NCBI GenBank assembly: GCA_951406725.2 | Contig: OX597842.1 | Location: 5,270,001-5,334,000, forward strand | DNA length: 64,000 nt | DNA from: Octopus vulgaris | Taxonomy: Eukaryota | Reading direction: 5' to 3' | In this document: positions 42,720 to 50,819 of the stretch, in pieces | Position numbering within the stretch: position 1 is the first letter of the stretch | Layout: each line of letters starts with the position of its first letter | Made by a program: the position numbers and the translations under genes | Notes under the pieces: generated by a model | The model's database searches: none | What the model was told of the DNA's origin: nothing | The model's input: the letters and a program-made list of their open reading frames with translations, nothing else

Positions 42720-44510
42720 CATGTAATTCTCACTTGTAAAACTTCTGAAACAGGCAGAGAATTTCGAAGGATTGTTTTGGTTCAATGGTTGAAAGCCTGT
42801 CAAGTGTACAGGAGATGGGGGTTCAAATCTCACAGGTAATCTTTAACCCCTTTTCAATCCAAAAGGGCTTTTCAGCTCAATATTTTTATGCTATAAGGCA
42901 GCAAGCTGGCAGAATCGTTAGCACAGTGGAAAATGCTTAGCGGTATTTCATCTGTCATGTTCTGCTAAGGTTGACTTTGTCTTCCATCCTTTGAAGGTCA
43001 ATAAAATAACTACCAATTGAGCACTGAGGCTGATGTAATCGACTTAACCCCCTCCCCCCGAAATTTCCGGCCTTGTGCCAAAATTCGAAGCCATTATTTA
43101 AGGCAGTGAGCTAGCACATCAGACAAAATCTTTAGCAGTATTTTGTCTATTTTTATGTTCAGAGTTCAAATTCCACTGAGGTCAACTTTGCCTTTCAACC
43201 TTTCAGGGTCGATAAAATAAGTACTGGTTGAGTACTGGGGTTGATGTAATCAACTTACCCCTCCCTCCGAAATTGCTGGCCTTGTGCCAAAATTTGAAAT
43301 CAATGTTTATATGCTATCATGTATAGCTTTATCTGCTTCCAGCTTCAATGTTACAAAAATAAAAATTATTCCACTTAGGAGTGGCTGTGGTAAGTAGCTT
43401 GTTTACCAACTACATGGTTCCAGGTTCAGTCCCACTGCATGGCACCTTGGCCAAGTGTCTTCTACTATAGCCTTGCGAGTGGATTTGGTAGACGGAAACT
43501 GAAAGAAGCCCGTTGTATATATATGTTTGTCCCCTCAACATCGCTTGACAACCGATGCTGGTGTGTTTATGTCCCCGTAACTTAGCGGTTTGCCAAGAGA
43601 TCGATAGAATAAGTACTAGGCTAACAAAGAATAAGTCCTGGGGTCAATTTGCTCGACTAAAGGTGGTGCTCCAGCATGGCCACAGTCAAATGACTGAAAC
43701 AAGTAAAAGAGTCATTCCTTCAAAATTTATAAAATTTCTTATGGTGTCAACTACATACAATGGTAAAACGCTTGTCAGGTCTACTGGAGTTTGGGTTCGA
43801 ATCCCATAGGTCCCCAGGGATTTTCAGTCCAGTTTTTAAATACCTATTATTTAAGGCACCAAGATGGCAGAATCATTAACACACTGGGAAAAATGCTTAG
43901 CAGTATTTCATCTGTTCTCATGTTCTGAGTTCAAATTCTGCCAAGGTAGACTTTGCCTTTTATCCTTTCAGGGTCGATAAAATAAGTACCAGTTGAGAAC
44001 TGGGGTTGATGTAATCAACTTACTTCCTCCTCGAAAATTGCAGGCCTTGTGCCAAAATTTGAATTCAATATTTATATGCTATTATATATAGCTTTATCTG
44101 CTTCCAGCTTCACTGTTACAAAAAAGAGTTATTCCACATTCTCTCAAAATGTTATAACATTTCTTATGATATAAAGAACCAGCAATTCTCGCTTATAAGA
44201 ACAAAGTTCCTAAAATGGTAAGAGAACTTTGAAGGATTGCTTTGGTACGATGGTAGAAAGCCTGTCATGTCTACAGGAGATATGGGTTCAAATTCTACAG
44301 GCAGCCTTTACAATGCTATTATTTACAGCTTTACATTTCCTTTAAACGTGACTGTTCCAAAAATGATTTCACATTCTTGAAGTTTCTAAATTCTTAGGAC
44401 ATTATCAACATACAATTTTCGCTGGTGAAGATAAAGTCTCTAAAACGAACAGAGAAAATCAAAGGATTCATTTAATCCAATGGTAAAATGCTTGTCAAGT
44501 CTAAAGGATT
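42720..44510 (+). repeat. Local tandem duplication carrying 3-4 degenerate tRNA-like units
   Basis: GGATTG..TGGT..CCTGT-7nt-ACAGG..GGGTTCAAAT at about 42769 and 44234; diverged copies at about 43755 and 44464. Confidence 0.6.
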
Positions 44511-48199: not shown

Positions 48200-49140
48200 T
48201 ACTTTCCCTGGTGAACTCCAACTTGTATGCTAAATTCATCATTGTATTCAAGGCTCTCACCTCAGTGACAGCACCACTCTACATGACTAGTACAGCTCTA
48301 ACAAGCCACACCTCTACCTCTAGCTTCCTTAGAGACCACCAGATGAGAGAGCAGAGAACCCTGTTGAAAGCTTTCTCCAGATTGACAAAAGCTAAATACA
48401 ATGGTTTACTTTTGGCCAAATGTGGAAGCGCGTGGCTTAGTGGTTAGGGCGTCAGCACCATGATCGTAAGATTGTGGTTTTGATTCCTAGACCGGGTGAC
48501 ACATTGTGTTCTTGAACAAATCACTTCATTTCACGTTGCTCCAGTCCACTCAGCTGGCAAAAATGAGTAACGCTGTGATGGACTGGCATCCCATCCAGCT
48601 GGGGAACACATACGCTATAGAAAACCGGACCCACGAGCCTGGCTAGGCTTTAAAAGGGTACATTTATTATTTTTTAAAAAACTTTTGGCCAAATACTTTT
48701 CTTGCAACTGTCTCACTAACAAGATGGTGAGCTGTGGTATTTCTCCCAGGAAGGTGTCATGCTGGCAGAATCGTTAGCACGCCGGGCGAAATACTTAGTG
48801 GTATTTTGTCTGCCTTTACGTTCTGAGTTCAAATTCCGAGGTCAACTTTGCCTTTCATCCTTTCGGGGTCGATATAATCGACTTAATCCGTTTGTCTGTC
48901 CTCTCTGTGTTTAGCCCCTAGTGGGCAGTAAAGAAATAGGTATTTCTCCCAGGAATAAAACCAAACTGCATCTCATCTAGTTTATTTCTATACTTAACCA
49001 ATTAAGCTATAACCCTCTCAGTAACTTTCCTGACCCGGTCCACCAGTTTAATATACCTCTGTAAGTGTTTCTATTGAAGACATCTCCTTTACCCTTGGAG
49101 CAGCTAACTATAATACTACTACACCAGTCTTTGAGATGAC
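48200..49140 (-). mobile_element. RTE LINE RT remnant interrupted by SINEs
   Basis: AFVNLEKAFNRV and QFGFIPG remnants. Confidence 0.7.
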
Positions 49141-49904
49141 ATTGTAGTGACGCCATCTTGGAAATCTCCAGCATGCATGCACAGGGTTGGAATCTTCTGG
49201 AAGTTCCCTCATGCAGGAGTGGCTGTGTGGTAAGTAGCTTGTTTACCAACCACATGGTTCCGGGTTCAGTCCTACTGTGTGGCATCTTGGGCAAGTGTCT
49301 TCTGCTATAGCCCCGGGCCGACCAATGCCTTGTGAGTGGATTTGGTTGATGGAAACTGAAAGAAGCCCGTCACTTATGTATATATGTATTATATATATAT
49401 ACATGCACAAGGAGTGGCTGTGTAGTAAGTAGCTTGCTAACCAACCTCATGGTTCCGGGTTCAGTCCCACCGCATGGCACCTTGGGCAAGTGTCTTCTAC
49501 TATAGCCTTGTGAGCGGATTTGGTAGACGGAAACTGAAAGAAGCCTGTCGAATATATATATATATATATATGTATGTATGTGCGTGTGTTTGTCCCCCTA
49601 GCATTGCTTGACAACTGATGCTGGTGTGTTTACGTCCCCGTCACTTAGCGGTTCGGCAAAAGAGACCGATAGAATGAGTACTGGGCTTACAAAGAATAAG
49701 TCCTGGGGTCGATTTGCTCGACTAAAGGCGGTGCTCCAGCATGGCCGCAGTGAAATGACTGAAACAAGTAAAAGAGAGAGTAAGAGTATGCACATGTACA
49801 GAAAACTAGCAGCAGTGAAATTCTCCTGTATCTTTCTCTTGGATGCTAGCAGCTGAACAATACAGACATGTCTCCAGTAGCTCTCTTGAGCTGCTACCTC
49901 ATGG

Positions 49905-50157
49905 CACATCTCCGCTATGCTTGAGCGGTCAGGATTGACTCACTCCACTTGACTACTGCAATAAGCTCCTAGGCTGCCGATTCGCCCAGAGGAAGGAAAT
50001 ATTTATATTGCGAATCAAAGAATAAATATTTATACTGTTGAAGTTAACGGAAAATCTTGACTCTTTCATCGATTAATATTTGATGTAAAGGATACGAGCA
50101 GCACCCTTCTAATGCAGGAATCTCTCATCCTATTACAATTGGTGACCTCGACGTGAT
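49905..50157 (+). mobile_element. Partial LTR (Gypsy-like) plus tRNA-Trp primer-binding site
   Basis: AATAAA near 50020; end ...CCTATTACA; 2-nt spacer; then TGGTGACCTCGACGTGAT, the classic Trp PBS. The 5' TG end was not found. Confidence 0.55.
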
Positions 50158-50213
50158 CTGAACATGCAGCCTTCTGATCTGGAGTCAGAGCACTACCGTT
50201 GCGTCACAGGGCC
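50140..50213 (-). pseudogene. tRNA-Trp(CCA) copy with templated 3' CCA, degenerate
   Basis: Reverse complement GGCCCTGTGACGCAACGGTAGTGC-TCTGACTCCAGATCAGAAGGCTGCATGTTCAGATCACGTCGAGGTCA-CCA matches eukaryotic tRNA-Trp. Mismatches in the D arm, T loop and acceptor stem. Confidence 0.85.
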
Positions 50214-50819
50214 TGTGCTGTCGGCACCGTTCCTAAATAACTGGGATTGATGAGGTTGTATCCCACACCACCGTATATTTTAATCGTCTTGGCAATGGTC
50301 CAGGGGCTTTCCCTGTCTTCATATCCTTAAATGCCTCATCTCTTATACTATCAACTCTGATGGCTGGACCCTCAATTGGTCCGATATTTGAACGACTCTC
50401 CTTCACCCATTCAATAACCTTTCTCCATGCATCTCATACATACATACACACATATATATATATATTAGGCACAATGGCCCAGTGGTTAGGGCAGCTGTAT
50501 GATCATGGTTTCGATTCCAAAACCGGGCGTTGTGTGTGTTTATTGAGCAAAAAACACCTAAAAGCTCCGCGAGGCTCCGGCAGGGGGTGGTGGCGATCCC
50601 TGCTGTACTCTTTCGCCCCAACTTTCTTCTGTTGGCCTGCTTGCTTAGCCAGTGGGGTGGCGTCATTTCAAGGCTAAAAGAATCTGAAACTGCTGGAGCA
50701 GTGCTGTTAGCTTTACTACACTTTCCCTAAACCTCCTCCAGTGTGTGGCAGTAGGTGAATGGGGTTGTTTGGTGTTGCTACCCCAGTTTGTCTCATTTGT
50801 TTCTCCCCTTGAGGTAGGT

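Follow-up and report, generated by a model that had tools for sequence, protein, structure and literature searches.

The window analysed here, by which the whole 64,000-nt stretch is meant (G000:C29:5270001-5334000), contains a long terminal repeat (LTR) of a retrotransposon that does not stop at its terminal CA but runs on into a complement of transfer RNA (tRNA)-Trp. As read from the sequence, the LTR ends at position 50137 (...TTACA), AT follows, and an antisense tRNA occupies 50140-50213, exactly the limits within which ARAGORN calls a tRNA-Trp(CCA) on the minus strand. The initial annotation had recognized this arrangement, i.e., an LTR end, AT, and a complement at the primer-binding-site (PBS) position that passes through the whole tRNA-Trp with CCA, and it was right: the copy spans from nucleotide 1 of the genomic genes to CCA. 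It had placed the LTR start at 49905, however, whereas the LTR starts at 49143 and is split by two copies of what we take to be short interspersed elements (SINEs). Neither gag-pol, internal DNA nor a second LTR was found within the 64-kb window, where the matches to a full-length relative (L172, see below) are confined to a short repeat-bearing stretch. The coordinates are presented in Table 1.

Table 1. Features of the insert and its target, in window positions.
Feature	Position	Strand	Basis
Old copy of a long interspersed element (LINE), presumably RTE-like; downstream part (reverse-transcriptase region), insertion target	48940..49142	-	same LINE loci as right flank, 74-89% in 14/14 loci
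Putative 4-bp target duplication, left copy ACAT	49139..49142	+	same four LINE positions as 50224-50227; 2/4 letters differ
LTR 5' part, start exactly at TG	49143..49215	+	92% to family LTR positions 1-61
Later insert inside LTR: two copies (presumably SINEs) and a microsatellite; 5-bp duplication of LTR letters (ATGCA)	49216..49787	+	sequence
LTR 3' part, end CA	49788..50137	+	91% to family LTR positions 81-431
Spacer AT, linking LTR to primer complement	50138..50139	+	identical spacer in internal-bearing copies
Copy of mature tRNA-Trp(CCA), complete from nucleotide 1 to CCA	50140..50213	-	ARAGORN, Rfam, gene comparison
Usual 18-nt primer complement	50140-50157		part of tRNA copy
Position opposite A58 (A58G)	50158		part of tRNA copy
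One-base loss at about G26	after 50189		part of tRNA copy
10-nt filler at non-standard end	50214..50223	+	matches neither tRNA-gene flanks nor LINE
Putative target duplication, right copy GCAC	50224..50227	+	LINE alignment
Upstream part of same LINE copy	50224..50413	-	76-87% to 39 other loci; degenerate reading frame

The junction is real and no assembly artefact, since contigs of four other runs bridge its junctions with 0-1 differences (X1, 50038-50324; X2, 50038-50180; X6, 50108-50237; X3, 50147-50408). These contigs stem from three studies, one of which is possibly the source of the assembly. No RNA data set was among those listed as containing the locus; X3 may be RNA, but this is a guess. 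Among the contigs listed from runs of two further organisms (B and C), none spans the junction. Organism D gave a single 63-nt piece, composed of LTR end and tRNA with 6 differences, which may or may not be orthologous.

Judging from its sequence, the tRNA part is a copy of mature RNA that decayed together with the LTR. CCA is encoded in none of the 29 tRNA-Trp gene copies, which bears out the earlier premise that tRNA genes lack it, and the 5' flank of the copy is matched by 0 of 23 gene loci. Seven of 75 positions are changed (three CpG decays, G68A, A58G, G10A, and a one-base loss at about G26); this divergence agrees with the 8-10% that separate the window LTR from its nearest copies, which argues for a joint decay. 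The copy does not resemble a functional tRNA gene: CCA is present, A58 (kept in 28 of the 29 genes) has become G, the match to Rfam RF00005 scores 29.5 bits (E 5.5e-4) against 66.2 bits for a genomic tRNA-Trp gene, and an LTR stands behind it instead of a terminator T-run. Nor does it resemble a tRNA-derived SINE, for which many copies with a common head, body and tail would be expected, as the junction is single-copy. Minimum-energy folding yielded no cloverleaf, even for a genuine gene, and was not used as evidence. Two further tRNA-like sequences were observed: a tRNA-Trp gene with T58 (L058, G000:C6:58387449-58387520), which lies in an extensive tRNA-Trp cluster at about 58.1-58.7 Mb of C6, and, on the plus strand of the window at 42771-42841, a weak Rfam tRNA match (30.6 bits) without ARAGORN call, probably the decayed head of a tRNA-derived repeat.

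One explanation advanced in the initial annotation was a PBS recombined with a tRNA gene. LTR complementary DNA (cDNA) could have recombined via its primer site into a chromosomal tRNA-Trp gene, given that 10-18 nt of homology exist and many genes are available. However, no gene flank is found beyond nucleotide 1, the flanks being two halves of one LINE, and the partial tracts described below end at modification sites, which is not a product of DNA recombination. With the CCA missing from all 29 gene copies as well, this explanation is refuted at the locus among the genes compared, and its probability is next to nil.

The repeat is a Ty3/Gypsy-type LTR: it is a multi-copy TG...CA sequence, and relatives have a PBS, pol in the order reverse transcriptase (RT), RNase H and integrase, and a polypurine tract (PPT). 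When the genome (2.8 Gb) was searched with 49860-50139, 43 matches at 87-92% were obtained (40 of 269 candidates scored), and the comparison of 29 matches defined a repeat of 431 bp. Among the top copies with both ends located, a 4-bp duplication is exact in 17/27, has one mismatch in 6/27, and more mismatches in 4/27. The multi-copy repeat with short target duplications that had been anticipated is therefore present, and a simple tRNA retrocopy beside a single-copy or non-LTR-like sequence is ruled out. As for the internal gag-pol to be looked for in other copies, pol and integrase were found in relatives, but not for the exact subfamily or in the window.

A second LTR is present in 7 and absent in 6 of 13 internal-bearing loci, each read over 10 kb. 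The element nearest to the window LTR is a deleted two-LTR element (L011/L076, 88/84%) with PBS, PPT and duplication present, while the full-length L172, whose LTR is ~80% identical to the window's, has RT and integrase domains, both LTRs and the duplication GTCA. L174 belongs to a sister LTR family without blastn match to the window LTR; its RT, RNase H and integrase follow the Gypsy order, and its best solved-structure match is Ty3 Gag-Pol (E 3e-91). L174 and its relatives (e.g., G000:C2:92605800-92611300) form a young Ty3/Gypsy family of ~5.3 kb, with LTR pairs 97-99% identical and a primer site of only 10-12 nt, followed by an A-run. The CsRn1 clade, which we take to be primed by tRNA-Trp, is a candidate for these elements; the literature searched, PMC3587641 included, contained no statement on its primer.

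Other arrangements of LTR ends and primer sites were observed along the way. Six loci (L122, L069, L094, L251, L190, L231) contain several tandem units of LTR end plus primer, as if the LTR had repeatedly absorbed primer sites. In a tRNA-Trp-primed repeat family (L233, L242, L226, L250, L247) the end before the primer site is not CA, and several copies fold back into an inverted copy. In L230, a 3' LTR with PPT precedes a primer site of 20 nt, behind which comes the leader belonging to another LTR family, i.e., a tandem or recombinant element.

Genome-wide, an exact LTR-end-plus-primer pattern gave 84 sites (81 recovered by script), and a 25-nt pattern allowing 3 mismatches gave 91 (73 new). 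In the 161 pooled sites, which include element-encoded primer sites, tract lengths are 10 nt (35 sites), 18 nt (29, the end lying before A58), 20 nt (18) and 12 nt (10), with a tail to 75. The primer sites of internal-bearing copies measure 9-13 or 17-20 nt, and at most 32 nt in a few lineages; hence, the 75-nt tract cannot derive from element RNA. Every tract longer than those of internal leaders carries its own 3' flank. A 35-place pattern with position 58 left free yielded 28 CCA-bearing tracts of 34-75 nt, all counts being lower bounds. Only one of the 28, at the window locus, holds the complete tRNA copy, for which the initial annotation had proposed to check other copies.

This census bears on the proposal, also made in the initial annotation, that the element carries its own primer. 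A mobile element that transcribes its primer tRNA would be compatible with the layout of the minus strand, on which an entire tRNA, A and B box positions included, is followed by antisense LTR, with a T4 run 159 nt from the start, and with the leaders of some lineages, which keep up to 32 nt of tRNA complement. Yet the junction occurs once, pol, internal DNA and a second LTR are absent from the window, and the promoter-box positions G10 and A58 are changed, the latter invariant in the B box, with the tRNA decayed to the Rfam threshold. As a family, such an element is refuted by the copy census, and it is extremely improbable. Rather than an element that primes itself, the locus is a dead fossil without present activity.

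Regarding the leaders themselves, about 32 nt of tRNA-Trp complement are kept in L206, L201 and L183 (first 32 nt of the leader), and are decayed in L075/L172. The leader of the young family has a spaced box resembling tRNA positions 57-46. Both observations may reflect leader rewriting by read-through or kept extended primer pairing. When nine intact leaders were compared with 2000 shuffles each, a second primer-pairing box was clear in two (0 and 6 of 2000), borderline in two (44 and 79), and absent in five, so a conserved box is only a lead.

In the literature, plus-strand synthesis is halted by m1A58 once 18 nt are copied, and anything longer is said to be incapable of integration (PMC8599865, PMC11251516). 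RTs both stop and misincorporate at m1A58, m1G37 and m2,2G26, with m1G mostly causing stops (PMC5066629, PMC8062790, PMC11417395). For human tRNA-Trp, m1A58 and G37 are reported (PMC6380271, PMC7403668), whereas Cm34 is reported from yeast tRNA-Trp and not from the human one (PMC6847430, PMC7403668).

The 28 tracts present features at these positions. The letter opposite A58 is T in 18, A in 6, C in 4 and G in none, i.e., it is changed in 10/28, the tract in the window included, an excess with binomial p 2e-4 even at 10% background. In two hand-picked orphan sets, position 58 is changed in 3/15 against 8/244 non-CpG sites (p 0.02) and in 6/24 against 10/350 (p 2e-4). Tracts end after 39 nt (the last base before G37) in six cases, 37 nt in four, 42 nt in three, and 36 nt and 50 nt (before G26) in two each, with single ends at 34, 35, 38, 40, 41, 43, 44, 46, 48, 51 and 75 nt. 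Among the hand-picked copies, 6/23 end at 39, one ambiguous copy counted (p 0.002 versus a flat distribution over 33-45). Four of the six 39-mers go on with AT, which would correspond to a wrong base opposite G37 and then the right one, or to non-templated addition, and G37 is mismatched in 3 of the 13 tracts that pass it. This genome-wide inherited class thus appears to log RT stops at tRNA modifications.

The target is a single old LINE copy, one half of which forms each flank, with 0 target bases lost. Four LINE positions occur twice, as ACAT on the left and GCAC on the right (2 differences), at a site that is variable across LINE copies; as aligned, the target fits a 4-bp staggered cut, though the duplication is inexact. 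In an ordinary solo LTR the target duplication would directly follow CA, but here AT, 74 nt of tRNA and a 10-nt filler intervene; the filler's first four letters could be a snap-back on the tRNA 5' end, although the stretch is short. Given the LINE target is continuous across the whole LTR-plus-tRNA insert, LTR and tRNA arrived together. This weighs on another possibility, namely that the LINE machinery made a tRNA retrocopy, or template switching a chimera, which was joined to an existing LTR end, as a mature tRNA with CCA, an insert within a LINE and the presence of filler might suggest. Besides the joint arrival, with U3-R-U5 whole from TG, all copies present the exact primer register (CA-AT-TGG) at the junction, and there is neither a poly(A) tail nor a long duplication. 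Such an origin is largely refuted and very improbable.

Among the 15 long-tract copies with located LTR start, seven have an exact 4-bp duplication, the length found in the top family copies. One of the seven lies directly behind the tRNA (L163), and six lie behind a rebuilt CA end. The end was rebuilt through a return switch to the end of the LTR itself, via 3-8 nt of shared sequence, in L057, L138, L199 and L244, and by an inverted U3 start in L034 and probably L107. A further copy, L032 (G000:C25:9811999-9812179), consists of an internally deleted LTR and 65 nt of tRNA, joined by fold-back at 4 matching nt to an inverted copy of tRNA and LTR.

Read-through of the whole primer by RT, one of the two origins initially considered, is the best explanation of the tRNA part, because the CCA is not encoded, the copy starts exactly at nucleotide 1, shorter tracts end at modification sites, and position 58 is changed. 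As for the molecule involved, the locus is probably plus-strand strong-stop DNA that read through its primer and then integrated: it comprises the whole U3-R-U5 from TG, without PPT or internal DNA, and its tRNA part has CCA, modification signatures and no gene flanks. Minus-strand strong-stop DNA is ruled out as the substrate, since U3 is present to TG. Alternatively, the same read-through may have occurred at the right end of a full-length cDNA with unremoved primer, which integrated whole and was later reduced by LTR-LTR recombination to one LTR with the tRNA copy. This would account equally well for the precise TG end and all tRNA signatures, and reduction is the rule in a family dominated by solo LTRs (23/27 top copies have the 4-bp duplication with 0-1 mismatch). 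On the other hand, none of the 28 orphan copies has a PPT upstream, i.e., none is still a 3' LTR, and 5 of the 9 fold-back copies tested end exactly at the U3 start, which is expected of a strong-stop molecule because the molecule itself would begin there. The route through a full-length cDNA also requires an extra step. L230 is the one case of a 3' LTR with a primer site behind it, but there the sequence runs on into the leader of a different element. The absence of PPTs and the fold-back ends favour the strong-stop molecule as substrate, and we consider the reduced full-length element unlikely.

The sequence of events would then be as follows. Plus-strand synthesis from the PPT would copy U3-R-U5 and AT, and continue onto the attached primer, where methylated A58 would be misread (A to G) and a slip would occur near G26. 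The overlong end would be incapable of second-strand transfer. Integrase would make its usual 4-bp staggered cut and join the TG end, the other end being joined with the 10-nt filler; many relatives would first have rebuilt a CA end by a microhomology switch. The copy would have decayed neutrally thereafter, gaining SINEs.

Several points weigh against this interpretation. The duplication in the window is inexact (2/4 differ) and accompanied by the 10-nt filler, and 8 of the 15 long-tract copies, the one in the window included, lack an exact duplication. The genome searched yielded no autonomous element whose LTR is of exactly the window's subfamily, and full-length elements are rare in the family, so the missing PPT leaves room for the solo-LTR route. 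For about half of the 28 tracts the upstream repeat is only putatively an LTR, and the background mismatch rates are biased low by tract-calling. One of the 29 genes has T58 and is a possible source of some of the six A58T tracts, while the window's single A58G could be a later mutation. Finally, the modifications of this animal's tRNA-Trp, m1G37 and methylated G26 among them, are presumed, and the report of Cm34 from yeast, not human, leaves the 42-nt peak unattributed.

Primer read-through itself is already known from HIV proviruses. Defective human immunodeficiency virus type 1 (HIV-1) proviruses contain tRNA-Lys3 inserts of 7-54 nt beyond 18 (44 cases, 5/44 changed at position 58), attributed to delayed second-strand transfer (PMC12657518, Hardy et al. 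2025). As here, the primer complement runs on into the tRNA and position 58 is changed; in HIV-1, however, transfer of the strand takes place nonetheless and viral DNA downstream is retained in the provirus, in somatic cells (PMC12657518), whereas the present inserts are lone retrotransposon LTRs, often with a 4-bp duplication, inherited, and in one copy extending to nucleotide 1. Dead-end plus-strand intermediates of Ty1, composed of the PBS and 2 nt of tRNA, have been captured in yeast insertions, which likewise indicates that overlong strong-stop DNA builds up and is able to enter the genome, with integrase taking non-standard DNA and end joining finishing one end (PMC2939329). Yet the Ty1 read-through is of 2 nt, in laboratory composites, against 20-57 nt fixed in a natural genome, and Ty1's strong need for a terminal CA (PMC2939329) fits the rebuilt ends of the relatives but not the end of the insert in the window.

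Solo LTRs of tRNA-Trp-primed Ty3/Gypsy elements share with the locus the common TG...CA LTR, the 4-bp duplication and relatives with RT, RNase H and integrase, but a solo LTR stops at CA, whereas the window LTR runs on into the primer. For a squid SINE, Ohshima et al. in 1993 reportedly proposed a retrovirus-derived origin of tRNA SINEs, with primer tRNA fused to antisense U5 as the seed. The minus strand of the locus has the layout of that seed, but this copy never multiplied, contains a whole LTR, and apparently arose by plus-strand read-through. Helenus, Cassandra and Ajax, miniature terminal-repeat retrotransposons (TRIMs) with small-RNA sequence in the LTR, also tie a tRNA to an LTR and, in animals, have 4-bp duplications (Kojima 2024, PMC10886601). 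Helenus, however, is a multiplying family with two LTRs, PBS and PPT, whose tRNA part lies inside the LTR, is not PBS-complementary, and has been proposed to derive from an inserted SINE (PMC10886601). In contrast to Helenus and TRIMp3, the locus has one LTR and its tRNA lies outside it, at the primer site. Inherited single-LTR-plus-tRNA inserts logging tRNA modifications were not found reported in the literature searched, which included few subscription or older papers and whose supplements may list some.

The tract in the window is the longest member of an inherited class of probable read-through products. Although read-through DNA has been held unable to integrate (PMC8599865), dozens of inherited cases occur here, many of which bear integrase footprints. 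The positions of their ends and mismatches seem to map past germ-cell tRNA modifications, an approach applicable to any assembled species, and the tracts show how frequently the A58 stop fails in vivo. They also caution against taking every annotated tRNA gene and "solo LTR" at face value, some being debris of reverse transcription, and they are a concrete intermediate for the origin of tRNA-LTR hybrids. More speculatively, these retrotransposons may often undergo primer read-through, which would then be a creative process as well as a dead end, an idea put forward tentatively as it is doubtful. If it were true, products made of a single LTR plus tRNA would be fixed in the germline by integrase, and would make up a "fossil tRNA-seq" that can be dated and records the tRNA modifications of the germline. 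Transfers that succeed late would put tRNA sequence into element leaders, as in the 32-nt complements of several lineages. Rare full read-throughs, as at the present locus, would place a polymerase III promoter next to an LTR, and such a fusion has long been proposed to have seeded tRNA SINEs and tRNA-bearing TRIMs.
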